A stretch of 63,742 nt of DNA. It comes from Amphiscolops sp. MND2022. Taxonomy: Eukaryota. Location of the stretch: positions 124,001 to 187,742 of the forward strand of contig CAXLNC010001113.1 in the NCBI GenBank assembly GCA_964187785.1, in the 5' to 3' direction. Under the pieces are notes generated by a model that did not search any database, was not told the origin of the DNA, and was given only the letters and a program-made list of their open reading frames with translations. A program made the translations under genes and the position numbers. Below are positions 6,075-45,414 of the stretch, piece after piece (position 1 is the first letter of the stretch; each line of letters begins with the position of its first letter).

Positions 6075-6331
6075 TAACTTGTGACAACGAGATTCTGGCT
6101 ATGTGCTCACAACGATTGTTCCTATGATGTACCACTATCCTCGATATCCAGGCGTCACGCTCCTGCACTTCCTCGATTGGAAGTCTAAGCCCACATGGCT
6201 TGAGGAGGTGACAGTTCGTCATGCAAATGGATTCAAGTCAAGGACAGAACCTCTCCTGCACCTGACTCTGCAACAAGCTCTACAGATTGCCCGAACCCCA
6301 AGGGGCTTGCAAAGAGAGAGGCCCATTGACA
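6075..6331 (-). repeat. 5' terminal/LTR-like leader of copy A
   Basis: Begins TGTCAATG and shares blocks (TGGGGTTCGGG, CAGGTG, TCAAGCCATGTGGGCT, GGTACA) with the B and C leaders; the LTR 3' boundary cannot be defined. Confidence 0.6.
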
Positions 6332-10094: not shown

Positions 10095-10411
10095 TGTCAA
10101 TGAATGCTCTCTCCTAAACCCCGGTTTTGCGTCATTGGGGTCGGGATACAGAGTGTTGAGCAGAGACATGACTGCTGACAGGCAGGTGAGGATCTGTCTG
10201 GTTTTGTTGCATGTGACCTTTACATGCATTCGCCCTCACAAGCCATTTAGGCTAAGTCTCGGTCAACAGACCGAGGAGAAGGGCGGTACAGATAGCCACA
10301 AGGAAGGTTAGCATCATCACCAGATTGATAGCAGCATCAACACGCCTATTGAGCCATATCCTAGATAGACAGTAGTGACATCCAGCCCTCTGCCTTTCCC
10401 TGTGTGGACTG
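10095..10411 (+). repeat. 5' terminal/LTR-like leader of copy B
   Basis: Homologous to 56307-56620 and 6075-6331; the upstream flanks are unrelated among the three copies. Confidence 0.65.
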
Positions 10412-13400
10412 ATGGCAGAAGGGTCTGGTCACCTTCCAAATCCCGCAATGGGCAGAGACCTCGTGGCTGGCCATATTCACAAAGACCGTTATGGTCGCAG
10501 CCCGGCACCAGCATCGAGCCATCGCCCTGTAGGGAGAAAAAGAGTCCAAGCATCAGCAGATAGATCTCCTAAGCGGGTAGAACCTCCAGAATTGCCCAGG
10601 TTGAGAGCCCTAGAGGCACAAGCAGCAGCAATCCCTATCTCTAGTTCCGCGGCATCCTCCACCTCTCCCAGAAGCGGATCTTCTCGTGTCAATCCATACC
10701 CAATTGGGGAGGCTACCGAGAGCTCACCCTTGAGATTGTGCCCTCTGTGGCTACCCAAGCTACCCAATCTTGGGAACAGGGAGGATCATTGGATTTGACC
10801 CCGATAAGGAACGAGACTAGCCCTACCACTCCTTCCAATAAAACCATACAGGTTATGAGCCCAAACCTGGGTCAGGGATTGGCATCAGGTTCGACTCAGG
10901 TTGAAGAGGGAGAGATAGAGATGGATACCGCAATGGCCAGAGCTATTCTTCAGTCATGGTCGGAGACAAGGGCTGAAGATGGAACAGTGCAGAGAACATA
11001 CACTCAGTGTGCTCGTGAATGGCCTCTGTCAGAAACGGATTGAAGCTGCACTAAATGTTCTGAAGCGTGCTTGTGAGTATCTCCATGAAGGCATGATGCA
11101 GATGGGAAAGACAGTTGAACAGAAGGCCAATATTCCCAGTGTGGAGGCCGCTGTCAGAGAACTTGCTCATCACACTCAAGAGGTCCGTAATGGAGTGCAA
11201 CGAACAGTGACTCGCCAGACTGAGTTCTCCAACAGGCTGGACAGCATGACAGAGCACAATCAGGAAGCTCGTGGTCGTATGGAGGCATTGTCAGCCCAGG
11301 GTGATCAAGGAGGACGAGAACACATGGCCCTCGCTGTGGAGTATAGGCACTCAATAGACGAGACTCAACGAAAGGTGATTCAGTTGGGGAGCCTTATGGA
11401 ACATTCCCAAGTGGACACTCAGAGACTCGACAAGGGTCTGACTGATCTACGAGAAAATGTCTTCAATAATAGTGTGGCTATTGATCACCTAAAGGAGGAC
11501 ACGCAGCGCGAAGTAGCGAAGCTGAGTACCCTGAGTGGTCAAGCAACAGACATGTCAGTCTATCAACGGCATGCTGCCAGTCACGATCAAGCGCTTACTC
11601 AGTGCCGTACTCAGCTGACAACTCAGGCGCAGCGACTCGATGAAAGTGAACAACACCTTCGGCGTCTCCAACAGGAAGTGGCAGGCTTGACGGGTGAGCC
11701 GACTCCTCGAGTGGAGCAGGGCATCCCGAATCGAGATCCAGAGTTGGCCATCCGCCTGTCACAGCTGGAGGAAGGATTGAAGACTCAGCAAAGGGCGATG
11801 AAGCAGCTCAAAAGGGACAATGCTGAAGACGCCAAGGAGGTGAAGCAGTACCTAGACCAGGTACATGACCTTCTCACTACGACCCTCGAGGCAGTTGGCT
11901 CTACAACCTCCGAGCGGGCTACAGGAGGGATGACGAGGTTGTCCAAGGTGGCCAAAAGAGGAGATTTTAGAGTTGACGTGGAAGACAGTGACTTCTGCAA
12001 GGTGGGAGAGATTGTCCTTATTGGGGGTCAGGAGGCGAGAACAGTCATGGGTAAGAGTAGCCTTATCTTCAAAGTGCCACTGGATGGGGAATATCCCGAA
12101 GGAACGACTGTGAGAACCCTGCGGGAGAATGAATTTCTTCAGCTGGACGGTGAGAATGTGTATGTCTATGCGCAGGATTCAGAGGGACAGAGTCATATGG
12201 TGTGTGGTGTGGACTTGATGCATCGAGCACCCCCTGAGTGGGCAGAAGAAAGGGATGATGTCCAGGACCAAGTCTATTCAGATGACCTGGATCAACGGGT
12301 CCAGAGGGCCGTAGACGCTAGAATGGCGACTCCGAGGCCAGTTGTCTCGGGAGCAGGAGGACCGATGGTACCACCATGGACAGCATCCCATGCCCATGAA
12401 TGGAGTGCCTCGAATGGCCAGACAAAAATTCCTGTGTTGCCTTCTTTTGGAAAGAAGGAGGAAGGTGAGCCAGCGCAGGAACAAGGAGCATCTTATCAAG
12501 GCTGTGTCAAGCAAGAGGAGGATGTTAAGTTCGAGTCCCTGGATGACTACTTCTGCAGAGGAATGGACTCATCAGGACCAGCTTCATGGGATAAAATCCT
12601 TCGAGAAATGGAGCAGAATTCCCTTGAAGACGTGGGCACCATGAATTATCGAGAAGGAGTACGAGAAGAGAAATGGGGAATGTTGGACTTGAAGAGTATA
12701 CAGTTCCCAAAGGTGACCGCTCAATCGGTCAAAAGGGCGACCTTACTGCAGTACTTTGAGGTGGACTTTATCCGAGCTATGGGTATTATCAGCCCTGCAG
12801 CGGCCACCTATGCCAAAGCAGTGATTGCTGGTGTCCACAGAGATCTTCCTGTCTATCGCAAGCGAGATATGAGCACGACTGTCCGCGACTGGACCGGGAA
12901 GATGGTTGAAGAACTGTGGCATACACGCGCTGAAGCAGCGGTGAACTTAGCTTTACAGACAGCAGGGGTATCAGCAGAATCCTTGGAGATGGCGCGAATG
13001 CTAAGGCATGACCCACCAGTGAGGTTGATATTGATGACGGCTTATCATCGGCTGCTGCCCTATCAGTCTAGAGAAGAGGAAGAATTGCAGCAATATGTGA
13101 GGGAACCCCAGGTGGGCGATCAAGGAGCAGTGTCTACTTTTCAGAAGCTTCAGGCATGGAAGAGTGCTGGTCGTCGCTTAAGGCAGATGGGAGGTATGCT
13201 GCCCGGTATTCCTGCCTTGATGACTGCCTTTGACAAGATTTTAGCGGCCTTCAACATTCACAATCAGAGAGGGAATTGGTTCTACCAGACGGAGAGGAAC
13301 CTTCTTCCCATGGTGGACGCGACTCCAGGCCAAGCTGCATTCTTCTTCCACACCGTCGAGGTCAACTTGAACCAGGTCACGACAATGGTGAGCTATCTCC

Positions 13401-13658
13401 CACCTTCTGCTGCGAAAATCCATGCTGTGGATGCAAAGCCCAAGGCAAAGCCTAAGCCAAGGGCAAAGGCTAATAGCTCAGGGGGGGGGAACATCTGCTC
13501 CCACGAGCCCACCGCCTTCCTCTCCAGTGAAGACGGAAGGTCCGATTCCAAAACCTAATGCCCAGGTGGCCGAAAAGGGAGGCTCACCCGGAAAAGGTAA
13601 GAGCAAGGGAGCGGGATCAAGCACTGATAGACCGCCAGTGAACAAGAAGGGCCAACAG
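10412..13658 (+). CDS. Gag-like protein with Ser/Pro-rich N-terminus, long coiled coil (~11100-11900) and conserved core; frameshifts near 10735, 11030 and 13485
   Basis: ORFs 10412..10798, 10738..11043 and 10979..13558 together match the single copy C ORF; position upstream of the zinc finger and protease. Confidence 0.75.
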
Positions 13659-13715
13659 TGCATTCGGTTCTACCGAGGAACTTGCTCACGAGGTGACCAA
13701 TGTCAGTATGGACAT
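13659..13715 (+). other. CCCH zinc finger (C-x7-C-x5-C-x3-H) at the nucleocapsid position
   Basis: CIRFYRGTCSRGDQCQYGH, conserved in all three copies. Confidence 0.85.
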
Positions 13716-13869
13716 ATTCTTGGGACAGATGGAAAGCCCTTGAAGATCGCTCCGGAATTGCTGGAAAGGTATGACCGGCATTCAGCAGCGAGACGGGAGG
13801 GCAAGAAGCCAGAGACGACCGTGACGGCACAGATGCTTATGCTGAACGCCATTGAGCAAGCCGACTCTT

Positions 13870-14190
13870 GTTGCTTCTGCCTGCTGGATACTGGCGCGAA
13901 TGCCTTGGTACTTCCTCGTAAGGGAGAGATGTCTGGTACTGAAGCTCATTGCACTGTCCCGGGTGGCACCATGGTTCCCGGAACAGTTGTCCAGACACTC
14001 CGGTATGGGGAGGATGACTATCACGTTGTGGCTATTGAGGGTGCGTCTCCACTGATGCCACTATCATGGCTGATCTTGTTGGCAGGATGGTCCTACATGC
14101 CAGTGGTGAAGGATGGGAAAATGGAGGTGACGATCGCATCCCCGAGGGGACTGTCTGTGACGCTTGTCGAGCGTTCAAAGATGCATTATA
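13870..14190 (+). CDS. Retropepsin-like aspartic protease domain
   Basis: CLLDTGANALV, with the catalytic DTG starting at 13887. Confidence 0.88.
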
Positions 14191-14399
14191 TCGACAAGGC
14201 CACCTTCTTCAATGTCCTTCAGGACGCTTGGAAGCGTTGTAAGGCCTCGGATGGCATGGACTATGACCAGCTCAAGAGAGCCCTGTCAATGGAGACGCCC
14301 CATGTGGCAAGTGCAGTGAAGATGGAGCGACCCTCCTCTATCCGTTTCTTGGACATGAACATGAGCCGCAAGGGCTATATGAGGAGGATTGTGGATCTC

Positions 14400-14870
14400 C
14401 AAAGAACAATCGAGTCTATGACTTGGCCAAGTCAGAACAATAGGCCAGGACATGGCCTCTTCTTGGGAGCACCAATAGGGGATATGAGAAAGGATGTGTT
14501 TCCAAGAAGACCTTTGACGCGCAGTATACGCAGATCTTGCGGAGGGTACGTGCGCTGGCCAGATGTTGCCAAAAGACAATCCAGTATATGGGCGTATATC
14601 TGACAAAGTTGGAGTCTGGTCAAGGACTTAATCAGCACAGGGACTTCCGCAACCACGAGAAGTATCTCAACTACACCATCAACTTCGGTCACTATACGGG
14701 TGGACACTTAGAGGTGCTTCGTGACGATGATTGGGAGTCCTGTGCGGCACCGTTGATCTGGGTTGAGTTCACGGCGGACATCATCAAGCATCGGGTAAGA
14801 GAGGTGACTTCAGGTGTGCGATATTCAGTGACCCTGTTTACTCCAAACCACCTGGAGAGGCTGTCCGATG
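14400..14870 (+). CDS. 2OG-Fe(II) dioxygenase domain (TET/JBP-like motif pattern)
   Basis: HRDFRN (14636), FGHYTGGHLEV, KHRV (His at 14789), RYSVTLF (14819); all conserved in copies A and C. Confidence 0.82.
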
Positions 14871-15169
14871 ATGAGGATGAATCTTGAATCGTTTGGTTTC
14901 CCAGTGGACCAGTATGCTGAAAGGAAGACCACCAGTGTCTCTGCCGTGAAAGGCCCCACCGTTGAAGAACTTGACACTTCCGGTGAGGTGGAGATTCCCT
15001 CGACAGCGAGGATTGAGGAGATCCTAGAGAACTCCGAAGAAGCGCTCACTGTCCAAGCGGTGGAGAAGCAAGTCAGAGCTCTATCAGATCCATTGGACTC
15101 CCTGAGTGGTCAGGTGCCACGACCAAGCGCATCTGAGAATCGATCTTCGCGGCTGACTTTGGAGACATG

Positions 15170-15620
15170 TGCCTTGATGACACGGGACTTCAATACCGCG
15201 ATGGGTCTGCCGAAGGGCGAACTTCCTCAGTGCGTGGGTCAAGACAGGGGTTCCGTATATGGACAAATGCTGCGTGAAGAAGTTCAAGAAGTGGAAGAGG
15301 CCGTAGCACGAGGCATTCTTCATGAAGTGCTGGCCGAGTCCGTTGATGTCCTTTACCTTGTGTTCAACTTGCTGCAGGAGTGCGGCCTTGAGAGAGCTGT
15401 TGATCCAGCCTTCTCGCTGAAGCACGAAGACAACATGAAGAAGCAGCATGAGACAGTGACGCACCTGGCTTGTACCAGGAACGCATATGCTCAGTCTACT
15501 GGGAAGTCTGAAAAGGAGTTGGCGTTCACTGTCTCCAGAACTGAAGGAGGTAAGTGGCTCTTGTACTCCCAGGGCAAGCTGATCAAGCCTCATGACTATG
15601 TCTCGAGTGACTTTGACTCC
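15170..15620 (+). CDS. All-alpha MazG/DR2231-like NTP pyrophosphatase (dUTPase-like) domain
   Basis: EEVQE-x15-ESVDVLY (ExxE..ExxD), KHEDNMKK, GKLIKPHDY. Confidence 0.78.
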
Positions 15621-16403: not shown

Positions 16404-16445
16404 TGACAAGTACGGGCCCTCCTTAGGTCTCCTGAGGAGGTGCCC
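16404..16445 (+). promoter_or_regulatory. Putative stop-codon readthrough signal: TGA-CAAGTA, 7-nt spacer, hairpin 16414-16445
   Basis: Upstream and downstream ORFs are in the same frame; an identical arrangement is present in copy C. Confidence 0.8.
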
Positions 16446-16454
16446 TTTGATGCA

Positions 16455-16583
16455 TGCGCAGTGTGCTTTCGCCCATGTGCCCTCTGTGGCCCGAAGCATT
16501 GCATGCTGTGTTACCGTCGAATTCACCCATGGTGTGCCACGTCCCCACATGACGATGCACATCCCATTGTGTGCAGATTTTGC
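16455..16583 (+). other. PHD-like zinc finger with an extra CxxC, N-terminal to the integrase
   Basis: CAVC..CALC..CMLC-x4-H-x2-C-x12-CRFC. Confidence 0.7.
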
Positions 16584-16899
16584 GCCTCTTCCCCTGGTGG
16601 ACGTACTCATTTTCAGGTGCACAATGTTCAGATGAGACAGCGCTTTGTGATCTCTGGGTGCGCTACAGCCATGCCTGAGGTGCTTGAAGAACCCGCCATC
16701 ACGGTGCACTCCTCCGACAAGGACATTGCCAGTGGAGATGAGCATCCCTCTGTGGAAGAGCTACCTGCTGCACGGTGCAATCCAGTTCCCTTAGTGGACC
16801 GAATGGTGTGCGTCCAGGCACATAGGTCAAGCCAGACTGCACCTTTTATAGTTCCGGATATTCACCGTGTTCTTGAAGGAACAGGCATGTTGGAGTGCC

Positions 16900-17750
16900 C
16901 AGACCACAAATTGGACCATGGTGTTCCGGATCCTAAATGTGACTATTGTAAAAGAGCTCTGGGTCCCTTATACAGACATTCGGCCCTGAAGGAGTCAAGG
17001 GAGATTCCGATCCTCACATTTGATTTCTCAGGACCGCACCCCTCCACAGTGCATCCTGCCAAGCAATTGATGGTTATTGTTTGGTGCCTGAGGGAGGTGC
17101 GACTGATTTGGGCAATGGGCGTAGAAAATAGAGATGATCCCCATGTGGTCGCCGGATTACAGGTTGCTCTTGATGATTTGTCCAGCTTAACCGGAGGTTG
17201 CCGAGCACCTGTCCTGCGTCTTCATTCCGACAAAGCAAAGGAGTTCCTTGCGACAAGTGTGCGAAAATTGTTGCGTTCTCATGGCACACGCCAGACCACC
17301 AATTCCGGGTACGATCCTGCCGCAAATGGCATAGCTGAGCGATGGGTAGGTATTATCAAGGTCCGTGCAACGGCACTGCTGGCAGAGCATCGACTTCCTC
17401 CGGACTATTGGACATATGCCTGCAAATGGGTTGCCTATGTGCACAACCATCGTGTTCTGAGCATTCAGCTTAATGCCAGTTATCCACTTTTTGGAGATGT
17501 GGTGGTCGTACATCGTTTCTTGAAGAAACCACCGAGCTTTGAGGATCGTGGGATCACTGGAGTTTGTTTAGGACGCAATCCGTTAGTTTCTGGAGGGGTG
17601 ACAGTGGGAACGGTCTCGGATGGCCTTTTTAATGTGATTGTCACTGCCAAGGTCCGAAAATTGGGGGAGCGTCGTCCTCAGCGATGGAAGCTTCATGTGC
17701 ATCCTACGGAGCCTCGAGCGGCCGCCTATGTGCGCAATGATGGGGAGATC
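16900..17750 (+). CDS. Integrase (HHCC plus DDE core)
   Basis: DHKLDHGVPDPKCDYC; TFDFSGP; LHSDKAKEF; NGIAERWVGIIK. Confidence 0.92.
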
Positions 17751-19181
17751 CGATGGAACCTGAACGACTTAGACGTGGCCACTGTGGAAGAACTGGAACC
17801 AGAAGGTGCCGTTGAAGTGCAAAATCTCCGTTCTCTCGGAATGGGCTGGGCATGGTATGTGAATGACCTCAGCAAATATCTTCCGGATGCGGAGACTCTA
17901 GCCGCAATGGCCCCCACAGATGACGATGTCGTGGGTGTGGATCATGATGTCCCATTGAGTGAGATTGCTCTGGAACCTGAGAGGGTGGATGTGCCCGTTG
18001 AGATCGACCCTTATACAACTCCACTACCTTTTCCTCATGCCGCGCCTGGCCCAGCTGAATATGAGACACTTGCCGGTATGGCACCAGATTTGCTTCCTCG
18101 TTCACAAGATGTGGATCTGGTCGTGGCGGCAATGGATATTCCTCTAGCACCAGCTCTACGTGCTCACTTGAAGTCATGGACGCGCGAAGACCTGAATGTA
18201 CGAGTGTTTCAAGGTGTTCGTCGTGGAGGACCTCCTTCTCACCGCGTCTGGTGTCGTGAGACATATGAGATGAATACTGGCAAGCTCATTGCGCGGGAGT
18301 TCTACAATCCTGATCAATCTTCTTTGGTTCGTTTGCCCACACCGGCACTTCCAGATTGTACACCGATGAATGCCGACCGTCGATCGATTCGCAGTATCTT
18401 CTGGTATTCTGAGACTGATGTCTTGCCCTCCCACCTCTCCCGACTTGTTCCTGGCCGTGTTCTGGCTTCTGCGGCTCCTGCGGGCGGACCTCGCCTACCC
18501 ACCTCGGTCCGGGGGGAGGGTGGTGAGCCGCATATGGCATATGATGCTCAGAGCCAGCAACGTCAGGACTTGACGCCAGATTCCGGGGGAGCCTCAGCGA
18601 AAGGGCAAGAGTCTCCTACCGAAGCTGGAAGCGGGGGAGCTGTGGGCCTCGACCAAGAAGAAGTTCTCTCACAAGATAGCTTTGAGACTGCCATTTCTCA
18701 GGGCTACCGAACAGAGGATGAAGAGGGAAATTGGGATTCCTCCGTTTCCTTGGTGCACCTCGGGTGGTTGAACGTAGAGCTGAAGTCTGACGACTGGGTC
18801 AAGGTAATGGATCAGCCACCGGTCCGAATCATGAAAATCACAATGGATGAGGATAAGAACCGCAAGAACACGAAGAAATTTGTGGTTGAGGAGAATGACC
18901 AAGGAACCTCGGTAAAGACCTATTGTGTTACTGGTCTCGATACGAGTAAGCAACTGGAACTGGTGGAGGCATCGTTTCAGTTGAGATGCAGGATCTTCGA
19001 ATTCAATGCGGTGTCCTTTGCGGCCATTCCTTTGGAACTGGTGCCCCTAGAGGTCGACTATGTTGATGCGTTGTCAAAGCAAGACGTACCGGACTATTTT
19101 GCTGGGCCGTCAATGGCTAAGACACTGACACAAGAGACCCGGGTGGTATTTGGACCGGAAAAGGGGGAGTAGAAAGCAGCA

Positions 19182-21101
19182 ATGCTGGCTGAACTACAAT
19201 CTTTTGCCAAACTGGATGTGTATGAGGCAGTTTCCCGTGCGGACGTAGGCCACCAAGAAATACTTCCTGGCAGGCTGGTTCTTGTGGTGAAACCCAATCC
19301 AGAGGGCGTGAAAGGGAAGAAGAAGGCAAGAATTGTGGTGTGTGGGAATTTCCAGACTATTCATCAGGATGAAATGACCTCTTCAAAGACTCCTTCGTAT
19401 CCTATGCTGAGAATGCTCTTGTCCTTAGCTTCATATCAAGGTTGGCCGATAGAGACGTGGGACGTATCAACAGCTTTCTTGTACGCCAGGTTGTATGGGG
19501 ATAGGGATACGGACCTTGATGGTCAATACATCTATATGAGGCCGCCAAAGGTCATTGAGAAGCTTGGTCTGTTACCGGAAGGGACGATATGGAAGTTGAA
19601 GAAGGCGCTTTATGGATTACGTACTTCACCGCTTGCTTGGGAAGTTGAGAGAGACAATACCCTTGCACAGCTCCAATGGGAAGTTGAAGAACGATGGTAT
19701 GGTTTGGTTCCTGCAAAAGGCAATCCCTGTCTATGGGCGATCGTTGAGCTTGATGCGGGAAATCATTGTGTGCCCGGTGTGGCCAGGCCATCTGCACAGA
19801 CTCTGAGAGCCGAAGAACCAGGGCAGCCGTCAATGGCCAAGAAGTATCGCACAATAGGAATTCAGACAGAAGGTCAGGAGAAACCTGTGAGGTTGCTAGG
19901 AGGACTGGTCATGTATGTGGATGACCTGTTGCTGGCAATGCCGGAATGGCACTTAAGACCTGTGGTGGATCTATTGTTAAAGAAGTATGTTATGAAGCAG
20001 TCGGGTGTTCTCCCTAGTGGGCCACAGAAACAGGATGTGCAGATTGGTTTCCTTGGATGTCGAATAACCAGAGACCAGTATGGTATCATTTTCTGTGACC
20101 AAGAAAAGTACATCCAACACTGCATGCATGAGAATGGGTTTGTTGGTGCAACGCAACAAGTGACGTTGAAGCCCTTTCACCGACCACCCGAAGTGGATGA
20201 GCGACTGCCTGAGGAAGTCTTGTCAGAAGAAACCAAAAGGAAGCATGTTGCAGAGTGCCAGAAGTACATAGGCCAACTGATGTGGCTGGCCACAAGGACA
20301 AGGCCAGACATCTCAGCTGTCCTAGGCATCTGCGCTTCCTTCATATTAAAGACTCCTCAGAAAGTGGCCAATCATTTAGTTGATTTGTGGAGATATGTGT
20401 GGACAACTCGTAGGTATGCAATGTCTACCCTTTCTCCCGCTATGGGCCCATCAAGTAGTTCTCCTCTTCCCGCAATGGGCTCGACAACAGGAGACCAACA
20501 TGGAAGCGATGTGGGTGAGAACATACGTCAAGATGGTTGCCTTGATGGCAGTGAAAGATTATCAATTGACAGACCGGAGTTTCACATCCATGCTTATACC
20601 GATGCCAGTTTTGCTACGTCAGGAGGGAGGAGTCGTTCGGGATTTCTTGTCTGTCTGGTTCAACCTGAAACGGGCGAGTATTCTGTTTTACAATGGTCCT
20701 CGAGGAGACAAACAATCACAGCGTATTCAGCGCCTGAGGCTGAGATAGTGGCAATGTCTGAGGGCATCATGACATCTATCTTGACGTATGATGCAGCAGA
20801 GTTTCTGGGTGTGTGTGTGGGTATAACTCCATTCTTGAAGATCCCAATGAAGACAGACAGTGACACTGGCCTGAAACAGTTAAAGAATCAGTCCATTGTC
20901 GTCAGGAATCGACCTCTCACCAAGAATTACAGCTATTTGCATGATGTGTGCTATGGGACACTGCTCCATCCCCCGTGCATTGAACCTTCATTTCTGCCGG
21001 GAAAGGTACAGAAGGCTGACGGAATGACCAAGATTTTGGGACGGAACCTTCAAATGGAGTTCATGGCCATGTTAGGTATGCGCTCCCCTTCTTACCTCTA
21101 A
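19182..21101 (+). CDS. Copia-type reverse transcriptase plus RNase H; preceded by a copy-specific TAG at 19170
   Basis: KARIVVCGNFQ, WDVSTAFLY, LKKALYGLRTSP, YVDD; RNase H AYTDASFA, WSSRRQ, SAPEAEIVAM, TDS, KADGMTK. Confidence 0.95.
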   Translation: MLAELQSFAKLDVYEAVSRADVGHQEILPGRLVLVVKPNPEGVKGKKKARIVVCGNFQTIHQDEMTSSKTPSYPMLRMLLSLASYQGWPIETWDVSTAFLYARLYGDRDTDLDGQYIYMRPPKVIEKLGLLPEGTIWKLKKALYGLRTSPLAWEVERDNTLAQLQWEVEERWYGLVPAKGNPCLWAIVELDAGNHCVPGVARPSAQTLRAEEPGQPSMAKKYRTIGIQTEGQEKPVRLLGGLVMYVDDLLLAMPEWHLRPVVDLLLKKYVMKQSGVLPSGPQKQDVQIGFLGCRITRDQYGIIFCDQEKYIQHCMHENGFVGATQQVTLKPFHRPPEVDERLPEEVLSEETKRKHVAECQKYIGQLMWLATRTRPDISAVLGICASFILKTPQKVANHLVDLWRYVWTTRRYAMSTLSPAMGPSSSSPLPAMGSTTGDQHGSDVGENIRQDGCLDGSERLSIDRPEFHIHAYTDASFATSGGRSRSGFLVCLVQPETGEYSVLQWSSRRQTITAYSAPEAEIVAMSEGIMTSILTYDAAEFLGVCVGITPFLKIPMKTDSDTGLKQLKNQSIVVRNRPLTKNYSYLHDVCYGTLLHPPCIEPSFLPGKVQKADGMTKILGRNLQMEFMAMLGMRSPSYL

Positions 21102-21279
21102 TGGTGTGTCTCGTCAATTACACGTAATGTGTCGCATGTTGTGCTAAGCTGTGTTTCCTTGGTGGACTGTGTTTGAGAGAATGACTGATGAGATTGAGGC
21201 TGTTCCCGTTATGGGCTAATATTTGTGTGTCTGTCTGGAGCCGTTTACAGGAAAGAGGATCAAGGGTGGCGGTGCGATT

Positions 21280-24200
21280 ATGTCCCACAGGGGGGAGGGA
21301 GCCATCTATCAGGAGGGCCAAGACCGGCCTTCCCAACCTGTTGCCTCTAGTCGGCAAAGGACAAGCACAGCTGGTGCAACTGAGATGGCCCCGAGTGGCA
21401 TTTCTACAGCATCATCCACGCAACCGTCACCACCTCTTCCAACCAGTGACCTACCTAAGGAAGTGCCGCATATGGCAGAAGGAAGGTCACAAATGACCGT
21501 AAAACTCGATCAAGCAGTAGATGCGCGACAATTAGCTGCGCATGATGTGGTACCACGGCTGAGAATACAGCTTGAGGAGATCTTTGAGCCTTCCCCTGTG
21601 GACCAGGTCGACTTATCTCAGACTGTCAATAGTCGAGTGATTATCATTCATGGCCCCACTGGAACAGGAAAATCGACAGTGATCCCATGGGAAGCTATGA
21701 GATGGCTGGAAGAACACTGTTCCCGCAGAGGACGCAAAGCTGGTAGGGTGATTTGTTCACAGCAGAGGAGGAAAGTTACCATCTCCTTGGCCCAGGAGGT
21801 CCGACGTAGACATGGCGAAGTTGGAGTCTCCACAGTGGGCTATCATGTGTCAAGAGACCGCCAAATCACGGATGACACTAGATTGGTTTATCTCACTGAG
21901 GCTATTGGTGTCTTCTCTCTGCTGAATAACAGATCGCCCGGTGTGGCCAATCCGCTAGCAATTGTGATAGCAGATGAAATCCATGAAAGGACCATGTACA
22001 CACAGATGATCATCGGCTTGGCTCGAGATCAGATGTCTCGTAGCACCGGAATGGTCTTGATCCTCATGTCTGCGACAGTTGATATGGAGGAATTGAGAGA
22101 TGCCCTTCCAGGAGCTCGGGAGATTGAAATTGGGAAGCATGAGTTCGCAGTGCACCGCTATTACCTCGAGAGGCCTGTGACTCAGTCTACCAATATTCTT
22201 GAGCAGACAGCACGACTAGTGGTGACCCTGCACCATCAGCATGGCACAACAGATCTGGTGGAGGGTGTCCCGAGCGGCCAATTCTGCGACCATTTCTTGG
22301 TATTTTGTCCAGGCAAGCCTCAGATGAGGGTTCTGGCTTCTATCTTGATAAGATGGCAGGAATTGGGATATACTCGGGGACTGGAAATTGTCCAAATGTC
22401 GAGTGGAGAGGACCCTCGGACCTGGGAGTACTTTGACAAAGCAGTGACAGACTATCCCGTAATGGGCCGTGATCGACCATACTACATGAGTCCTCATGGC
22501 ATCCAGAAAATGAAGCCAAACGCGGGCAAGAATGGTCCACAATATCCTCCCTATGCGGACAAGGACATCGTGACGCAATTATCCCATGTGGTCAAACGGA
22601 AAAGGAAGGTGGGGCTGACGACCAATGTCAACCAGACCGGAGCCACTCTGACTTCGGTTGCTGTGGTGATCTCGACGACAGGCGTCAGGACATGCTCCCC
22701 CAACTTGAGATCCAAAGAGGAGGTCAATTGCATCCAGACGGTGTCCGTGAGTGACCTGATTCAACAGGGAGGAAGGGCTGGACGTGTATGTCCCGGAGAA
22801 CATTATGTGATGGCTTCAGAATCCCAGGTGGTCGGACAGTTTCGAGGAGCAAGTGCACCAGAGCTGCTCAATGCCGATGTGGCACCGCTCATTAGCATTT
22901 GCAAGAGGATCAACATAGATCCACTCAACTTTCCGATCTTGAACATGCCGGATGAGAAGGTGTTGGGAGCCACCACACAGCGAATGAGAATGCTGGAGTT
23001 GCTAGACGATGACGGCAATCTCACCCATCTGGGACAATCACGACTGGTGTTGGACTATACCCCAGAGTGGGCCCGCTTTATTGCCAAGGCATTGGAGTAT
23101 GGAGTGTCGGAGGGAGCTATCCGAATTGCGGCGGTGCTATGCCGAGAAGAAGATCTATACACCCCACATGTTCGTGAATCTCTTTCCCATGTGGACGGTG
23201 ATGTGATGACAATCCTCCATTTGGTATGGTTGGCTGAAGGAATCTTGAAGAGGTTTCACATCACACGAGTCCAGGCACTATCCAACCATGATGCCGCAAA
23301 GGCAACCCTTGAGCGGGCAGGCCTACAAGTCAAAGGGGTGATGCAAGTCATGCAGAACATTGAGCAGCTGCGTGAGTCAATTGCAAACTCAGATCTCCCG
23401 CGTGGGCCCTTGAGGAGATCCTCGGACAAATGCTATGCGACCCTGCTGGTGCATGCTTTGTGGGAGGGGTTCTACATGAATGTGATGATCAAGAGCTTCA
23501 CTGGACAGTACGTGAGCCCTACCTATGGAGGCGAGTGGAGCATCAGCAAGACCACACTGCAATATGCACCCTTGGTGGTCCTCCCGTTGAAGAAGACGAT
23601 CATAGATGGGAACCCTTTCCTCCAGTGGATCACCCCATTGCCAGTTGAGTGGCTTGTCGAACGAGATTGGTGGATCCAGACACATTGGGAGGATAATGAC
23701 TGTCGCATGGTTTACCGCAATCTGGTCGCATGCCCGATATTGCGAGACATGGTGAGCACGGCAAGGCTGTACCCTGGTGGTCGAATCAAGATCATTGAGC
23801 TGAAGGCTATCCCACCAGTGGAAGAAAAGCCGCCAATGGCCGTGACCATCGATAATTGCGCAGTCATGTTGAATAGGTACCTCCTCACAGCCCGAGAGCT
23901 GGAAATCATCTTCGACTTGGTCTCGAGTGACTACTTGGTAACTGCATATGTGTCAGGCTCATATGTCTTGAACAACACGGTCAAGAATGAGGTCACAATG
24001 CAGGTTCTCAAGTGGACAGTGAGCACTTCCAAGTCCAAGAAGCCGTACAAACTGAACACCATTGACAAGCCATCTGTCCAGACACTTGGCGCTTACTCTT
24101 TCATTCCCCGTGAGGACTATCATCAGGAAGCCTGGTTGAGTGGTGGTAGAGAAGTGCAGCTTAAGTCCAATGCGGAAGACCTGGCCTTGTCGCGGATGTG

Positions 24201-27200
24201 GGGCTCCGTTGATGACACAGCCCTTGAAGAGACGAATATGTTCCAGACGGATGCCAGAGACTTGGCAGCAGACCGAGAAGCGGAGGAACATGAGGATAAC
24301 TTCGACTGCTATGGAGAAAAGGAAGTTTCCTCGATGGACAGCATCTTCAAGGAGAATGAGAAGCTCACCAAATGCCGCGAAGGGCACCAGGTCTACGGGT
24401 ATTGTGCTTGGTGCGACGCATCGATACTGAACCCGAATAAGCTTTGGAAGCATTATCTGGACTCACATCAGGTCCTGATGCAAGTGGCGCCTATGTCTCC
24501 TCCAAGCGTGTGGCAGACCCTGATGGGAAGAGAGATGGGAGCGAGAACACCTCAGTTCCAGACACCGCAGGGTCAGTACAAGTACTGGGTACAACCAGCA
24601 AAGAGGGATGGCATTGATACTTTTGTTATTGGGACTACCCAAAGGGGAAACGAGACCCTGGTATCTCTTGGAGAATTGTTTTTGGCAGACAACGGTGCTC
24701 TGCCCTTGGTGGCCACGAGCCCTGCAACACAGGTGCTCTCTCCAAGACAAAAGCCCCCTAATTGCGTGAGGGTTGCCCTGGGTGGCACTGATTACTGGAG
24801 CAAGGTAAAGCTGTATGATATGAATACGCTCCTCTCAATTGGGACCCCAGTCACATCGGACATGGCATTCTTGACGATGTTCAGCGAGTGGGGAGATATC
24901 CAGGGTGGTAAACAGGCTGGAAGAGGAGAGTACAGTTCAGAGGAACTGTATGGCATTCGTCGCTATCCCGACCAACTGAGAATGATGTCTCAAGAGGTGG
25001 AAGATGTGATGAAGTCCCGTGTGGCACCTCTAGATGTTCTCAGGGTTCGAGTGCCACATTGCTCTATGCCGGCCCCAGAGGTGTTGCAGGCGAGAATTAC
25101 ACCAGCCTACCACGAGGATAAAGGGGAAGCAAGGGGGTTCCTTCGTTGTGCCATAGCGGCTAGGCAGCAGAAGGGATATTCGGACTGTTCCACATGCCCC
25201 GAGCGGCAAATCTTCGATCACTTGTGGTTGGATGATTCGGAGTATGTGGCAGAGAGCACACTCCCTTCAAACCCCTTTGCGGGCCAGTGGACTTACGCTG
25301 ACAGCACAGAAGGCGAGAAGTGGAGATGGCTCACCCATGTAGACGTCTGGAGCGTTGCTCAAGAAATTCAGAGAAAAGGGGTGAAGTCAGAACTCAACTA
25401 CCACGAAATGGCAAAGCGGGACAGTGTGAGAAGGGTATGGCCAGTTAGTTTGGTGAGACATCCAGTCCCCAATGAGGCGTCTTCCAATGCCGTGAAGAAG
25501 GTATTGGATCAGTATCCCTGGGTGGACTCCGGCTTGCAGTGGAAAGGCACTATGGTCTTCAAGGAGAGCCCTGGTGAAGACAGGTCAACTCTTTTCGATA
25601 CCACCAAGAAGCCTGGAGTCAAACCCCTGAGCGGGCCTCCCAGTTCTAGCCAGGATGCTTCGTCACTTTCTGCTCCTCCAGCAAAGGCAATGCCTAGTGC
25701 TTTGACAAAGGCTGACACGCCTGCTGGAAAGGCAACTAGTTCAGGGAGGCCAGCAAGTGAGCCCGATATCAAAGACAAGGGAGATGGGACCGCAGGACCC
25801 AAGCCATCTACTCCCTTGAGGGCCGCTTCAGAGTCAGGAATTACTGATCCAACCAAGAAGGAGGATACGTCTGCTGGTCCAAAGGCCGCCTCAACGACAG
25901 TGAGTATGCCGACATCTTCTCCGAAACCCTCGTCCTCAGTGGCATCTATGCACACAGCATCAAGCGCCATGCCAAAGGAAAAGGCTTCATCTGAAGCAAC
26001 TCCGATGTCAGCACCTCCAGCCAAACCCAAGGCAGGACCGGAGACAGGAGGTCTGTCGACCTCGAGAGCCCCGAGTGGTGCAGCAAGCCAGTCGTCTGTG
26101 ACTGCAGGATCCGGTTACCCGACCATTGCAGAGTCGTTGGGACAGAAAAAGGGTCCACCGTTGAAGGCAGCTCCATCCTCGAAGACAACGACAGCGCCTT
26201 CTACCAAGTCAGAAGATACTGGTCATGCTGCCGCGAAAGGCTCTACTTTGGTACCTCCCAAGGATAAGGCTGAACCATCAAATCCACCATCTTCAACGGC
26301 TTCAGTCTCGCAGGTGAAGGAGCCAGCTCAGCCAGCAAGGGCTCCTCGAGCCCCTGCAGTACAACCACCTGTTGAAAAGGATGCCGCGATGTCCTACACT
26401 GAGCAGGTCATGAAGCAGGCTGCCTCAGCAGTTCCCACAGGCAAGCTCACGGATGAGGACTTTGAGAGGATGGCTCAGGAAAGGTGGCAGAGGATACTGG
26501 CTGAATCAACTACCTGTGTCTCAGGCAAGGCTGCGTCTGTTGCTCAACTTCCTCAAGAACTACGAGGCGAGATTCTGCCACCTCAACCATTGTTCTCACC
26601 GATCCGCGGATGGATAGACGGTCTGACACCACCAGTTCACAAGGAAGGTCGAACAATTGAGCTCTCTTTGCCCGGTGTGGTCGGTCTCTTCAAGTGGACA
26701 TTCTTGGCCGAAAGCAGGCACGCAAAGAGACCCGCCCGTACAAGGGTGGAGAGACCAGGCCCTGAGCAGCTAGGCATGGATGCGCTCATCATGATAGTTG
26801 ACCGTTCCACTGGAGATCGCATTCCCTGGAATACCGGTGTGAAGAAAGAGCTGGAAAGAGGCGCATATGCGGCGAGCTATGATCGCGAGAATCCAATGCC
26901 TGGAGACAAGAAGATCATCTTGCACATGCAGCCTATCTCTTACCTGAGCGATGCGAACAAGATTGCATGGATACGAGCATTCTTGGCATGGGCTTACAAG
27001 GCTGTGTTGATCCAAGATGTGAATCCCCAGGTGGGCATGTCCGTTCACACCGGAATGGTGCATTTTCTGAATGAAATGTACTCCCGAGTGAGCGTGAAAG
27101 GAGCCAAGCCACTATCAGAGGTTGGCCAAGGGATTCCGGTTTATGCATCTGGACAGGAGATTCGGACCGGTCGAGAGGGATTGATGACCTCGGATTGGGG

Positions 27201-27463
27201 TAATCCACTCTTCATAGCGGCAGGCCGGAAGATTGTGGACTCCCTTTTCACAGGAGCAAGCTCGAAGAAGGAATCAGACTTGGGTGACAGAATGGAGTCT
27301 GCCTTCAATCTCAGCTTCTGGGAAAAGGAGGGAGCTTTCGACTGGTCTTGGCTCGGTTTGGATCTCGTGAATGAGCGCATGACTGAGGAGCTGTTGGTGT
27401 CCCTTGAGTGGAGTTGTTATCGAGAGTCGGAGATCCAGTTGATACAGACGTTCCTGGACATCT
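21280..27463 (+). CDS. Intronless DEAH/RHA (HrpA-like) SF2 helicase ORF2, >2000 aa, C-terminus truncated
   Basis: GPTGTGKST (21652), DEIHER (21973), MSAT, FCPGK, TTNVNQTG, QQGGRAGR (22762), HA2-like LTHLGQ..LDYTPEWARFI; C2H2-like CAWC..H..H (~24400); low-complexity linker ~25600-26450. Confidence 0.9.
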
Positions 27464-27817
27464 ATAAAGTCCACCTCAAAGTACTGCAGTAAGGTCGCCC
27501 TTTTGACCGATTGAGCGGTCACCTTTGGGAACTGTATTTCTTCAAGTCCAACATTCCCCATTTCTCTTCTCGTACTCCCTCTCGATAATTCATGGTACCC
27601 ACGTCTTCAAGGGAGTTCTGCTCCATTTCTCGAAGGATTTTATCCCATGAAGCTGGTCCTGATGAGTCCATTCCTCTGCAGAAGTAGTCATCCAGGGACT
27701 CGAACTTAACATCCTCCTCTTGCTTGACACAGCCTTGATAAGATGCTCCTTGTTCCTGCGTTGGCTCACCTTCCTCCTTCTTTCCAAAAGAAGGCAACAC
27801 AGGAACTTTTGTCTGGC
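27464..27817 (-). mobile_element. Inverted near-identical duplicate of copy B gag segment 12417-12771
   Basis: The reverse complement matches 12417-12771 with only a few differences. Confidence 0.9.
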
Positions 27818-41280: not shown

Positions 41281-44200
41281 GCCATACCCTCCTTCCACTG
41301 TCACGTTCAGCGATATCAAGGAAGATGATCTCCGACTCAACTCCCTTCCTCTGGATTTCTTGAGCAATGCCCCAGACATCCACATGAAGCATCTGGCTCC
41401 ACTTCTCGAGTTCCGTGCTGTCCGCAAAGGACCACTTGTTTGCAAAGGGGTTCGAAGGCGACTTGCTGTCTGCCACGTATTCTGAATCATCAATCCACAA
41501 ATGATCGAAGATCAGCCGCTCGGGGCATGTAGAACAGTCAAAGTAGCCTATCGCTTCTGCCGCCAGGGCACACCGAAGAAACTCCCTTGCTTCACCCTTG
41601 TCCTCGTGGTAAGCCGGTGTGATCCTTGCTTGATCGGCCTCTGGGGCTGGCATCGAGCAATGTGGTACACGGAGTCTAAGAACATCTAGAGGCCACACGG
41701 GACTCCATCACATCCTCCACTTCTTGAGACATCATTCTCAATGTGTCTGGATAGCGACGAATGCCATACATCTCCTGTGAGCTGTACTCCCCTCTACGTC
41801 CTGCTTACCACCAAGGATGTTTCCCCACTCACTGAACATCGTCAAGAAAGCCATGTCTGAGGTGATTGGAGTCCCAATTGACAGAAGTGTATTCGCATCA
41901 TACAGCTTGACCTTGGACCAGTAATCGGTGCCACCAAGGAATACCCTCACACAGTTGGGAGGCTTCTGTCTTGGTGAGAGGGTTGAGGTCGCAGGACATG
42001 TGGCCACCAAGGGCAAAGTACCGTTTCCAGCCAGCAATAGCTCTCCGAGGGATACCAAAGTCTCCTTGCCCCTTTGGGAGGAGCCTATGACAAAGGAGTC
42101 AATCCCATCTCTCCTTGCTGGTTGCACCCAGTACTTGTACTGACCTTGTGGAGCCTGAAACTGAGGGGTCCTTGCTCCCATCTCTCTTCCCATCAAAGTC
42201 TGCCACACACTCGGCGGTGACATCGGTGCAACTTGCATCAAGACCTGGTGCACATCTGAGTAATGCTTCCAGAGCTTGTTTGGGTTCCCGATTGACGCAT
42301 CACACCATGCGCAGTATCCATAAGTCTGGTACCCTTCGCGGCATCTGGTGAGCTTCTCATTCTCCTTGAAGATATTGTCCATCGAGGAAACTTCCCTTTC
42401 TCCATAACAGTCGAAGTTGTCCTCATGCTCCTCCGCTTCTCTATCTGCTGCCAAGTCTCTGGCATCTGTCTGGAACATGTTTGTCTCCTCGAGGGCTGTC
42501 TCCTCAACAGAGCCCAAGGTCCGCGCCAATGCTAGATCATCACATTGGACCTAAGTTGCACCTCCCGGCCACTCTTTAGCCAAGCATCCTGGTGGTAGTC
42601 CTCACGGGGAATGAAGGCGTAAGCACTCAGTGCTTGGACAGACGGCTTGTCAATGGTGTTCAGCTTGTAGGGCTTCTGGACTTGGACTTATTTGTTGTCA
42701 CTGTCCACTTGAGGACCTGCATGTTGACTCATTCTTAACAACGTTGTTGGAGGCATACGAGCCGTACACATAGGCACCCACCAAATAGTCACTCGAGACC
42801 AAATCGTAGATGAGTTCCAGTTCTCGAGCTGTTAGGAGGTACCTCATCAACATGACGGCGCAATTGTCGATGGTCACGGCCTTTGGCGGCTCTTCCCTTG
42901 GTGGTGGAATAGCCTTGAGCTCAATGATCTTAATACGACCACCAGGGTACAACCTTGCCGTGCTCAACATATCTCTCAATATCGGGCATGCGACCAGATT
43001 GCGGTATACCATGCGACAATCATTGTCCTCCCAATGAGTCTGGATCCACCAGTCTCTCTCCACAAGCCATTCAACGGGCAATGGCGTGATCCATTGTAGG
43101 AATGGGCATCCATCGATGATCGTCTTCTTCAGCGGTAAGACCACAAGGGGTGCATATTGCAAAGTGGTCCTGCTGATGCTCCACTCACCTCCGAATGTGG
43201 GACTCACATACTGTCCAGTGAAGCTCTTGAGCATCACGTTCATGTGGAAGCCTTCCACAACGCATGGATCAACAAGGTCGCATAGTACTTGTCTGTGGGA
43301 CGCCCTCGGTGGCCCACGTGGGAGATCTGATTGTGCGATCGACTCATGCAGCTGCTCAATGTTCTGGATGACTTGCATCACCCCTTTTACTTGTAGACCA
43401 GCCCGCTCAAGGGTTGCCTTTGCGGCATCATGGGTAGCAAGTGTCTGGATGCGTGTGATGTAGTACCTCTTCAAATTCCTTCGGCCAGCCACACTAGGTG
43501 GAGAATTGTCATCACATCACCGTCCACATGGGAAAGAGACTCACGGATATGTGAAGTGCACAAGTCTTCTTCACGACAGAGTACTGCCGCAATCCTGATA
43601 GCTCCTCCGACACTCCATACTCCAGCGCCTTGGCAATAAAGCGAGCCCACTCAGGGGTGTAGTCCAATACCAGTCTTGATTGACCAAGATGGGTGAGATG
43701 CCCATTGTCATCCAGCAACTCCAACATTCTCATTCGCTGTGTGGCTGCAGCCAGCACCTTCTCGTCGGGCATGTTCAAGATCGGAAAGTTGAGGGGATCA
43801 ATGTCGATCCTCTTGCAAATGCTGATGAGCGGGGCCACATCGGCATTCAATAGTTCTGGTGCACTTGCCCCTCTGAACTGACCGACCACTTGGGATTCTG
43901 CTGCCATAACATAGTGCTCTCCGGGACATACACGTCCAGCTCTCCCTCCCTGTTGTATCAGGTCACTCACGGACACTGTCTGGATGCAATTGACCTCCTC
44001 TTTTTGGATCGAAGATTGGGTGAGCATGTCCTGACACCAGTCGTAGATATCACCACAGCAACCGACGTCAATGTGGCTCCTGTCTGATTGACATTGGTTG
44101 TCAAGCCCACCTTTCTCTTACGCTTGACCACATGGGAGTTCTGCACCACAATGTCACCGTCCGCATAGGGAGGATACTGGACTCCGTTCTTGCCAGAAAA

Positions 44201-45414
44201 CGGCTTCAGAGCCGTGATGCCGTTGGGATTCATGTAGTACGGCTGATCTCTGCCCATTACGGTGTAATCCGTCACTGGCAAGTCAAAGTACTCCAGGTCT
44301 TCGGGTCCTCTCCACTCGACATCTGGACAATCTCCAGACCTCTTGTGTAACCCAATTCCTGCCATCGTATCAGAATTGAAGCCAAGATCCTCATCTGAGG
44401 CTTTCCTGGACAGAATACCAAGAAGTTGTCGCAGTATTGGCCACTCGGGACACCCTCTACCAGATTATCGTTGCCATGACTATGGTGAAGAGTCACCACC
44501 AGGCGTGCAGTCTGCTCGAGGATGTTGGTGGACTGCGTCACCGGTCTCTGGAGGTAGTAGCGCTCTACCTTGAACTCGTGCTTTCCAATCTCAATCTCGC
44601 GTGCTCCTGGCAAAGCGTCTCTCAACTCATCCATGTCAACTGTTGCCGACATAAGGATCAAGACCAGTCCGGTGCTTCGAGACATCTGATCTCTGGCTAA
44701 TCCTATGATCATCTGAGTATACATGGTCCTCTCATGGACTTCATCGGCAATGACTATGGCAAGAGGAGGGGCCACACCGGGCGTTCTATTGTTCAGAAGG
44801 GAGAATACTCCAATCGCCTCAGTGAGATACACTAATCTTGTGTCATCTGTGATCTGACGATCCCTTGACACATGATAGCCCACTGTGGAGACTCCAACCT
44901 CACCATGTCTACGCTGGACCTCCTTGGCTAATGAAATAGTAACTTTCCTTCTCTGTTGTGAACAAATCACCCTTCCAGCCCTTCGTCCCCTACGGGAACA
45001 ATGGTCTTCTAGCCATCTCATTGCTTCCCATGGAATCACTGTCGATTTCCCTGTCCCTGTCGGACCATGTATGATGATCACACGACTATCCACAGTCTGA
45101 GATAGGTCAGCTTGATCCATCGTAGTAGGCTCGAAGATAGCCTCCAGCTGTGATCTCAAACTTGGAACCACATCATGTGCGGCAAGCTGTCGCACATCTA
45201 CTGCTTTGTCAAGCTTCATAGTCATTTGTGACTTCTCTTCATCTGCCATACGCGGCACTAATTTTGGTACGCTGCTTGCTGGAAGAATAGGTGGTGGCTG
45301 TGTCTGCGATGCGGATGTCAGGCCACTCTGGGCAATATCAGCTGCATCATCTGCACTTGTCCCTTGCCTTTTCAAGGCAACAGGAGGAATAGAACCCTCC
45401 CCGCGGTGGGACAT
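41281..45414 (-). pseudogene. DEAH helicase ORF2 of copy C, split by several 1-nt indels
   Basis: ORFs 44272..45450, 43967..44365, 43512..44027, 42698..43492, 41738..42529 and 41201..41698 tile the copy B helicase (GPTGTGKST, DEVHER, QQGGRAGR). Confidence 0.88.

Follow-up and report, generated by a model that had tools for sequence, protein, structure and literature searches.

A DEAH/RHA-type helicase frame inside giant Ty1/copia retrotransposons and its possible role in reverse transcription of their long RNA

We analyzed a 63,742-nucleotide stretch of DNA (the window; G000:C1126:124001-187742, from contig CAXLNC010001113.1 of assembly GCA_964187785.1), which lies on a 208-kb contig of a 1.07-Gb assembly consisting of chromosome-size and many small contigs. 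The window contains three related Ty1/copia retroelements: A (minus strand, running off the left edge), B (10095-27463) and C (56620-41281). All three share the domain order CCCH finger, protease, 2-oxoglutarate (2OG)-oxygenase-like and MazG-like domains, followed by integrase, reverse transcriptase (RT) and RNase H, which is the copia order. Behind the RNase H of B, an open reading frame (ORF) beginning at 21280 encodes a predicted DEAH/RHA-type helicase, and comparison of copies across the assembly placed this ORF inside the element. The features of the window, centered on copy B, are as follows.

1..6331, minus strand: 5' part of copy A, with the 5' long terminal repeat (LTR, 6331-5551), primer binding site (PBS) and gag-protease
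10095..10850, plus strand: 5' LTR of copy B, TG...CA, 79% identical to the LTR located behind the C1832 helicase ORF
10237..10256, plus strand: degenerate dinoflagellate spliced-leader (SL) relic in the LTR of B, two edits from the SL core
10851..10863, plus strand: PBS, complementary to the tRNA-Met anticodon arm at 13/13 letters
10919..13555, plus strand: gag-like coiled-coil region, frameshifted in B and without a Pfam gag match
13392..14600, plus strand: CCCH zinc finger (Pfam zf-CCCH, E=1e-3) and aspartic protease (LLDTGA; motif from sequence)
14450..14880, plus strand: 2OG-Fe(II) oxygenase-like domain, broken in B and open in A (Pfam 2OG-FeII_Oxy_3, E=1.3e-4 in A)
15183..15389, plus strand: MazG/PRA-PH-like NTP pyrophosphohydrolase domain (Pfam PRA-PH, E=5e-8)
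16404..16446, plus strand: in-frame UGA and hairpin before integrase, a likely readthrough signal from copy comparison
16407..19169, plus strand: PHD-like finger (from sequence) and integrase (Pfam rve, E=5.5e-5)
19173..21101, plus strand: RT (YVDD) and RNase H (Pfam RVT_2, E=8.5e-19)
21102..21279, plus strand: spacer of 178 nt, containing AG|CCGTTT (21239-21246) and TCAAG; candidate trans-splice acceptor
21280..27463, plus strand: helicase ORF, the 5' 2,062 codons of a gene of ~3,380 codons
21610..23760, plus strand: DEAH/RHA core (RecA1, RecA2, winged helix, ratchet, OB fold), from homology and fold comparison
24403..24468, plus strand: C2H2 zinc finger common to all three lineages of the element
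27464..27817, minus strand: inverted copy of the element's own gag, closing copy B (355 nt, 98% identical to 12417-12771)
41281..56620, minus strand: copy C, 80% identical to B and 3'-truncated; helicase ORF from 45414, frameshifted

Beyond the left edge of the window, copy A continues with pol, the helicase ORF, a polypurine tract (PPT) and the 3' LTR. In copy B, a premature stop lies just ahead of the RT/RNase H region; YVDD was found in all 12 RT frames compared. The tRNA-Met gene used for the PBS was taken from the large chromosomes of the assembly as a proxy. At the sequence level, Pfam matched only the coiled-coil and the CCCH finger in the gag region.

Because neither B nor C has a 3' LTR, the window by itself could not settle the order of helicase and LTR. 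A helicase search of the assembly gave 44 matches, and a second search with a distant member gave 36. On C1832, C1425, C1711 and C1164, the helicase ORF is followed by a purine tract and then by an LTR matching the 5' LTR of B or A; where unbroken in this set, the ORF spans 3,402 and 3,286 codons from stop to stop. Two LTRs were found in copy A (22,040 bp; LTR distance 0.087), C1677 (24,699 bp; 0.003) and C1561 (25,672 bp; 0.011), and a further copy, D, likewise shows pol, helicase, PPT and LTR, with one LTR whole and one partial. In all eight copies whose 3' LTR could be matched to a family 5' LTR (A, D, C1832, C1425, C1711, C1164, C1677 and C1561), the 3' LTR lies after the helicase, and the reverse order, which the first-pass annotation had proposed to look for, occurred in no copy. 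A PPT and TG start also stand behind the helicase ORF in two copies of lineage III (defined below). The PPT and 3' LTR lie within about 80-290 nt of the ORF end, GGGGAG precedes each 3' LTR, the LTRs are of the form TG...CA, and the flanks are unrelated between copies. Since the PPT and 3' LTR come after it in eight copies, the intronless helicase ORF lies inside the element, as had been proposed from the window.

The association was also evident from the RNase H side. A search with RNase H gave 42 matches at 39 loci, 31 of which have a same-strand helicase match just downstream. The other eight comprise two with ORF pieces, one running off the contig in a fused frame, one cut by an insertion, one at a contig end and three stopping at RNase H. 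In the six small-contig regions examined, no PPT followed an RNase H lacking the helicase, and no locus runs straight into an LTR. In two DNA runs from two studies, one possibly source-related, all 30 bins of B were covered (21,397 and 6,238 diverged contigs), and no RNA run was among those listed; this coverage, which reflects copy number and not expression, establishes the element as a many-copy family. Solo LTRs are rare (L261-L313): about 40 full-length LTR matches yielded one clear case, and the others adjoin a PBS or PPT; this one true solo LTR (L284) has a 5-bp, T-rich target-site duplication. Nesting was seen where a lineage II copy abuts and truncates a lineage III RNase H (G000:C1677:30212) and at C1347:19107, where a PPT and LTR start lie within another copy.

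The helicase frame of B is uninterrupted from the ATG at 21280 to a stop at 27490-27492 (2,070 amino acids), and all superfamily 2 (SF2) motifs were located in it: I, GPTGTGKST (21652-21678); Ia, SQQRR (21757); II, DEIH (21973; DEVH in C); III, SAT (22069); V, TTNVNQTG (22618); and VI, QQGGRAGR (22762). Both the full motif set and the unusual letters noted in the first-pass annotation (SQQRR, DEIH/DEVH, TNVNQTG and QQGGRAGR) were thus read back at their sites. A literal DEAH occurs in part of lineage III only, with DEIH or DEVH in the other element helicases. The ORF had been placed about 180 nt past the RNase H stop; the measured distances are 178 nt (B) and 183 nt (C). It had also been described as an intronless gene of 6.2 kb. 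The frame is indeed uninterrupted, but 6.2 kb is not the whole gene, as both window copies are cut at the 3' side: the ORF of B is broken at 27463 by an inverted 355-nt gag piece, and that of C is frameshifted and ends at 41281. Unbroken relatives elsewhere in the assembly are 3,285-3,393 amino acids long.

The helicase occupies the first ~800 amino acids of the ORF, and the remainder contains a C2H2 finger, a PHD-like finger and domains without assignment. The core matched Pfam DEAD (E=2.4e-6), and the best Protein Data Bank (PDB) sequence match was DHX15 (E=3e-34), extending across the winged-helix, ratchet (HA2) and OB domains; the phmmer alignment to the DHX15 C-terminal domains covers residues 462-814. 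An AlphaFold model built from 14 element sequences (predicted local distance difference test, pLDDT, 74.9) gave Foldseek template-modelling (TM) scores of 0.70-0.72 to Prp43/DHX15 across more than 700 columns, so that the HA2-like region suspected earlier is supported by both sequence and fold. The TM score was 0.69 to the best giant-virus structure model and 0.3-0.44 to NPH-II, potyviral and pestiviral helicases, compared with 0.72 to Prp43. Because the winged-helix, ratchet and OB parts are present and the scores to viral helicases are far lower, an NS3-type viral assignment was rejected; according to the model, the ORF at 21280 encodes a whole DEAH/RHA enzyme. The term "env-like" holds for the position behind RNase H but not for the protein: none of three full helicase frames contains a 19-residue window above 1.8 on the Kyte-Doolittle scale, as looked for to detect a transmembrane segment, and Pfam returned no fusion-glycoprotein match in the helicase ORF proteins.

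An RNase III domain in the tail was considered, prompted by GDxxE in 10 of 11 rows, but was not supported, as the other comparisons were at noise level. The structural match to RNase III had a Z-score of 3.3 and a root mean square deviation of 4.8 over 127 aligned residues, on a tail model with pLDDT 60. In hhalign, the tail matched RNase III with a probability of 0.5%, and no hidden Markov model match was obtained with 80 RNase III domains. Fold comparison, Foldseek, VIA, Pfam and a PDB profile gave no RNase III signal above noise for the tail, and ESM Atlas searches with tail segments gave no usable match. Separately, two RNase III domains occur in a frame of 2,013 codons on the large chromosomes of the assembly.

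The copies fall into three lineages with two architectures. Lineage I comprises B, C, A, D, C1832, C1711, C1425, C109 and C1164; lineage II comprises C1677, C1561, C1667, C810, C1921, C265 and C172; and lineage III comprises C107, C1453, C1674, C1127, C1878, C1347, C1902, C309 and C672. In lineages I and II, a separate helicase ORF begins about 160-190 nt past the pol stop. In lineage III, the helicase lies in frame behind RNase H via a low-complexity linker, and C107 has a 6,671-codon frame of integrase, RT, RNase H, helicase and tail. The ENA protein P0100 likewise has RT and DEAD on one chain. The original description as a second ORF therefore applies to lineages I and II and not to lineage III, where the helicase is fused to Pol. 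The lineage III element is ~29 kb long, as the sum of distances from two copies. Helicase identity between lineages is 21-31%, with invariant catalytic residues; the RecA2 insertion, a G or A in motif V, and the C2H2 and PHD-like fingers of the tail are common to all. Among the collection proteins retrieved, 125 share at least 43% identity with an element helicase, and several of these are 3,293-3,393 amino acids long. At the start of lineage III Pol, a thymidylate kinase domain was detected (Pfam E 1e-26; G000:C107, L061:1-4989 minus, Pol residues 104-254). Nucleotide-pool cargo is also seen in lineage I (MazG-like and 2OG-Fe(II) oxygenase) and lineage II (oxygenase).

To characterize selection, dN/dS ratios were compared. 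The helicase gave 0.052-0.072 (four pairs, a fifth being saturated) and RT 0.052-0.074 (two pairs), values that describe active lineages and not the present copies, many of which are broken. The tail gave 0.06-0.13 in its structured part and 0.14-0.25 in its low-complexity part. These sequence comparisons indicate that the helicase is under purifying selection as strong as that on RT.

Trees were built for RT (105 rows) and for the helicase (163 rows in FastTree, 12 short rows omitted; 64 rows in IQ-TREE, two omitted). Both proteins gave the same topology: (Ia, Ib), with II as sister and III apart. The element helicases formed one clade with SH-aLRT support of 97 in IQ-TREE; support in FastTree was weak (69, with one outsider). 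The clade has a long stem and lies outside Prp43, Prp2, Prp16, Prp22, DHX35, HrpA, HrpB and 13 giant-virus rows, in a set in which DHX9, Spindle-E and dinoflagellate DHX genes are not labelled. A tree uniting the element helicases with HrpB was not rejected (approximately unbiased test, p-AU 0.45), and their Walker A resembles that of HrpB. The phylogeny called for in the first-pass annotation thus recovered the element helicases as a clade of their own, without nesting in any sampled cellular or giant-virus group. As they form one clade and the helicase and RT trees match, a single old capture is likely. The grouping could reflect long branches; the RecA2 insertion and tail fingers support the clade independently. 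No relative was found in IMG/VR; JGI metagenomes yielded 41 loci at 24-34% identity, none with a copia RT or integrase nearby; and the matches listed included no such helicase from Amphidinium or Symbiodiniaceae.

These data bear on whether the helicase ORF could instead belong to the host or to another mobile element and merely be located beside or within copia copies. The lack of a target-site duplication in 3/3 two-LTR copies, the short contigs and the nested elements would fit this reading. However, the PPT and 3' LTR follow close behind the ORF with unrelated flanks in each copy, the ORF occupies the same position in three lineages, is fused to Pol in frame in one of them, and lacks independent termini. 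Congruent trees were obtained for helicase and RT, and the DEAH genes on the large chromosomes are intronless, have canonical motifs and fall within cellular subfamilies. Co-duplication of a host gene, raised as an objection at the outset, is contradicted by the intronless ORF within LTRs, the dN/dS of 0.05-0.07 and the RT-congruent tree. Overall, the reading as a host gene or independent element is largely refuted and highly improbable. The large-chromosome genes include intronless Prp2-, Prp22-, Prp16- and DHX35-type frames (G000:C7, C5, C6 (L119-L122), C8 (L134)).

The element's host is probably a dinoflagellate sequenced together with a larger organism. Among named proteins, its RTs are closest to six from Amphidinium carterae (39-48% identity). 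Lineage II LTRs contain the last 16 letters of the dinoflagellate SL exactly (L054:6356-6371), and lineage I LTRs contain a degenerate copy; none of 480 shuffled LTRs reached two edits. In most LTRs the SL copy is preceded by CTCAAG or CACAAG, which is the tandem SL-relic pattern described in the study that also gives the SL sequence (PMC12014239). Small contigs hold 39 of 40 exact SL matches and 70 of 75 PBS matches, and GC content is 45-52% on element contigs versus 39-42% in chromosome stretches. One 190-codon lineage III RT/RNase H piece (72% identity) was found on a large chromosome (G000:C7:67542213-67542785, L325), ~650 nt from an N run in surroundings of 36-42% GC, representing either a misjoin or a transfer. 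Lying 110-150 nt inside the LTRs, the SL relics may correspond to the 5' end of the genomic RNA and indicate that this RNA was trans-spliced before copying. Outside these elements, other long intronless frames of 825-1,829 codons with internal repeats gave weak RapZ-C/pentapeptide matches (L133:1918-7404, L131, L037-L038 (C109:7428-13569)). Short palindromic repeats resembling miniature inverted-repeat transposable elements lie at window positions 9100-9336, 36371-36609 and 9555-9826, and are also inserted in copy D and beside C1425.

Next, the expression of Pol and helicase was considered. An in-frame UGA precedes integrase in all 12 copies examined. A hairpin stands behind it in 8/8 lineage I/II copies (z -2.2 to -4.7), with stem sequences that differ between lineages I and II; the four lineage III copies gave z values of -0.9 to 0.5 and have instead a different, conserved downstream sequence. 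Because the UGA is conserved and the hairpin is kept though the stem sequences change, the two likely form a readthrough signal before integrase. They are located behind protease, not between gag and protease. In Candida Tca2, a conserved UGA also interrupts the frame upstream of pol functions; here, by comparison, the UGA sits behind protease and is followed in lineages I/II by a simple hairpin (PMC2194720).

Within the spacer between pol and helicase, the frame shifts between copies and several ATGs occur. Readthrough from Pol into the helicase ORF of lineages I and II was rejected, as the spacer length alters the frame between copies. An internal ribosome entry site was disfavoured, since no unusually stable fold was found (z -1.3 to 1.5). 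In 9/9 lineage I copies, AG|CCRTTT lies 40-42 nt upstream of the ATG, with TCAAG next in eight; a similar motif lies 51 nt before the ATG in 3/5 lineage II copies, one with a mismatch. The motif, which was noticed after looking, has a background of 1e-4 per base. The spacer AG|CCGTTT and TCAAG resemble the two ends of the SL relic, whose AG is a known acceptor site for a new leader (PMC3229502, PMC2488372). The spacer AG may therefore be an SL trans-splice acceptor, and we regard this candidate as a lead.

The same observations bear on an alternative in which, in a host whose mRNAs are trans-spliced, the helicase governs processing, export or translation of the element RNA, acting like Prp43 or Prp22 to take spliceosomes apart on the long RNA and so preserve full-length genomes. 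Spliceosomal Prp43/DHX15 are its closest structures, the SL relics in the LTRs imply that element RNA has undergone trans-splicing, and the spacer holds a candidate acceptor. However, identity to Prp43 is ~20%, the tree does not group the two, and a Pol-fused helicase would be synthesized in the cytoplasm in small amounts. We consider this alternative unlikely.

The reading that we prefer, with a probability of about one in two, is that the helicase ORF serves the giant Ty1/copia retrotransposon as an accessory gene, whose product would aid reverse transcription of the element's own 21-29-kb RNA. The helicase, as an active ATPase, would enter the particle, take the genomic RNA as its substrate and pull along it 3' to 5', clearing structure and bound protein, and the cleared RNA would let RT complete the minus strand. 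In lineages I and II, it would be made from a shorter RNA with the SL trans-spliced at the AG ~40 nt before the ATG; in lineage III, it would be made as part of Pol after UGA bypass. The ~2,500-amino-acid tail, with its C2H2 and PHD-like fingers, may target the complex. This role is favoured for four reasons. First, Pol fusion in lineage III means that the helicase would travel wherever RT goes. Second, RT travels along its template 3' to 5', as DEAH helicases do on RNA. Third, host DHX9/RHA is recruited to HIV-1 RNA and raises RT processivity (PMC8191761). Fourth, plus-strand RNA viruses longer than 7 kb encode helicases, linking genome length to helicase (PMC4686597).

Several points weigh against this role. 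Length alone need not call for a helicase, as giant gypsy elements (Burro, >30 kb) carry other cargo, and none of the three helicase passages in the review describing them refers to these elements (PMC6431247). Of the ORF, three quarters lies outside the helicase, and the zinc fingers there suggest binding to nucleic acid or chromatin and not a part in reverse transcription. For the separate protein of lineages I and II, entry into the particle is an assumption of this reading. The motif V serine is G or A in 7/7 element helicases but S in 50 of 57 others; this change does not imply lost activity, because the side chain has been reported dispensable and G was noted in NS3 (PMC6486627). Finally, given the absent target-site duplications, the two-LTR copies may be mosaics of two loci, with elements perhaps longer than the reads; the RNase H-helicase and ORF-PPT-LTR junctions hold regardless.

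It is also conceivable, though rather doubtful, that the protein is a counter-defence factor whose helicase strips small-RNA or surveillance complexes off the transcripts of the element and whose fingers affect host silencing of either DNA or RNA. A transposon-borne superfamily 1 (SF1) helicase gave weak silencing suppression (PMC6338049, PMC4686597), non-replicative cargo of other kinds is present in the elements (2OG-Fe(II) oxygenase, MazG-like and thymidylate kinase domains), and the PHD-like and C2H2 fingers are retained in three lineages. Against this, Spindle-E is a far weaker match to the helicase ORF than DHX15 (E 2e-18 vs 3e-34), the suspected RNase III domain of the tail is unsupported, and a low-abundance Pol fusion in lineage III would fit a stoichiometric suppressor poorly. 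The in-frame Pol fusion favours RNA unwinding over silencing, although it proves neither. This alternative and the splicing or export one retain weight mainly because three quarters of the ORF lacks an explanation.

We then compared the element with known systems. Plant Sireviruses are Ty1/copia elements (Pseudoviridae) with an extra ORF behind pol. The present elements share with them integrase before RT, TG...CA LTRs, a PBS, a PPT and, between RNase H and the 3' LTR, an additional ORF; unlike in Sireviruses, the extra ORF is ten kilobases long, encodes a DEAH helicase and is without a transmembrane segment, in elements of 22-26 kb. Insect R1/TRAS, Jockey and LTR elements also carry a selected RNA helicase, in some cases behind RT, for which the same two functions have been proposed; those helicases are of the tobamovirus SF1 type and sporadic, whereas here an SF2 DEAH/RHA enzyme with winged-helix, ratchet and OB parts is clade-wide (PMC4686597, PMC6338049). 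The first-pass annotation had named insect non-LTR elements as the known carriers of retroelement SF1 helicases; this needs correcting, as such helicases are also reported fused to insect LTR elements (PMC6338049).

Enzymes in the env position are known from bdelloid rotifer LTR elements, whose ORF3 encodes a GDSL esterase or DEDDy exonuclease, typically from a spliced message; these elements are Gypsy-like with small ORF3s, and the available text of that study describes no helicase ORF3 (PMC5408684). The gypsy giants Burro and Ogre exceed 20 kb and have huge multidomain frames, with accessory ORFs sometimes as polyprotein subdomains, but differ in order and cargo, and "copia" appears nowhere in that review (PMC6431247). 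Prp43/DHX15, HrpB and giant-virus HrpA-like proteins have the same whole six-part fold (TM 0.72 for Prp43 and 0.69 for the giant-virus model); the element helicases differ in sequence (~20% identity), long-stemmed clade, RecA2 insertion, motif V G/A and 2,500-amino-acid tail. HIV-1 with DHX9/RHA, a DExH helicase that aids RT on retroelement RNA, is the functional model, although HIV-1 borrows a host helicase and the copia element encodes its own (PMC8191761). Among dinoflagellate retrotransposons, DNMT-bearing LINE and DIRS elements of Symbiodinium provide a case of early enzyme capture kept across families, with other classes and cargo; "helicase" is absent from the main text of that report (PMC5890265). 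Our search of the open literature, outside which lie Repbase, GyDB and subscription journals, turned up no report of an LTR element with a DEAH or SF2 helicase, and repeat libraries of dinoflagellate genomes may already contain these elements. What is new is the cargo class, its clade-wide constancy, the size and the two architectures; viral SF1 helicases in retroelements and enzymes in the env position were known.

Dinoflagellates are known for 5-hydroxymethyluracil in their DNA. One tentative picture, less probable than the helicase role itself, is that an ancient virus-like clade of giant copia elements in dinoflagellates passed the usual RT size limit by acquiring a processive DEAH helicase, supplied as a fusion to Pol or from SL trans-spliced sub-genomic RNA, and carries nucleotide-pool enzymes (thymidylate kinase, MazG-like and 2OG oxygenase) for replication in a host with modified thymine; such elements would be the retroelement equivalent of large RNA viruses. 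A ceiling near 10 kb is assumed for LTR retrotransposons, with RT processivity and packaging as its cause (PMC6431247). The copia clade described here is two to three times that size, and each informative member carries a spliceosome-type helicase selected like RT, which makes it testable in vitro whether reverse transcription can be carried past its length limit by an element-encoded helicase. A positive answer would make the helicase a candidate processivity factor for long cDNA synthesis as well. In addition, the SL relics of the LTRs, together with the candidate acceptor, would show an LTR element expressing its second cistron via host trans-splicing.

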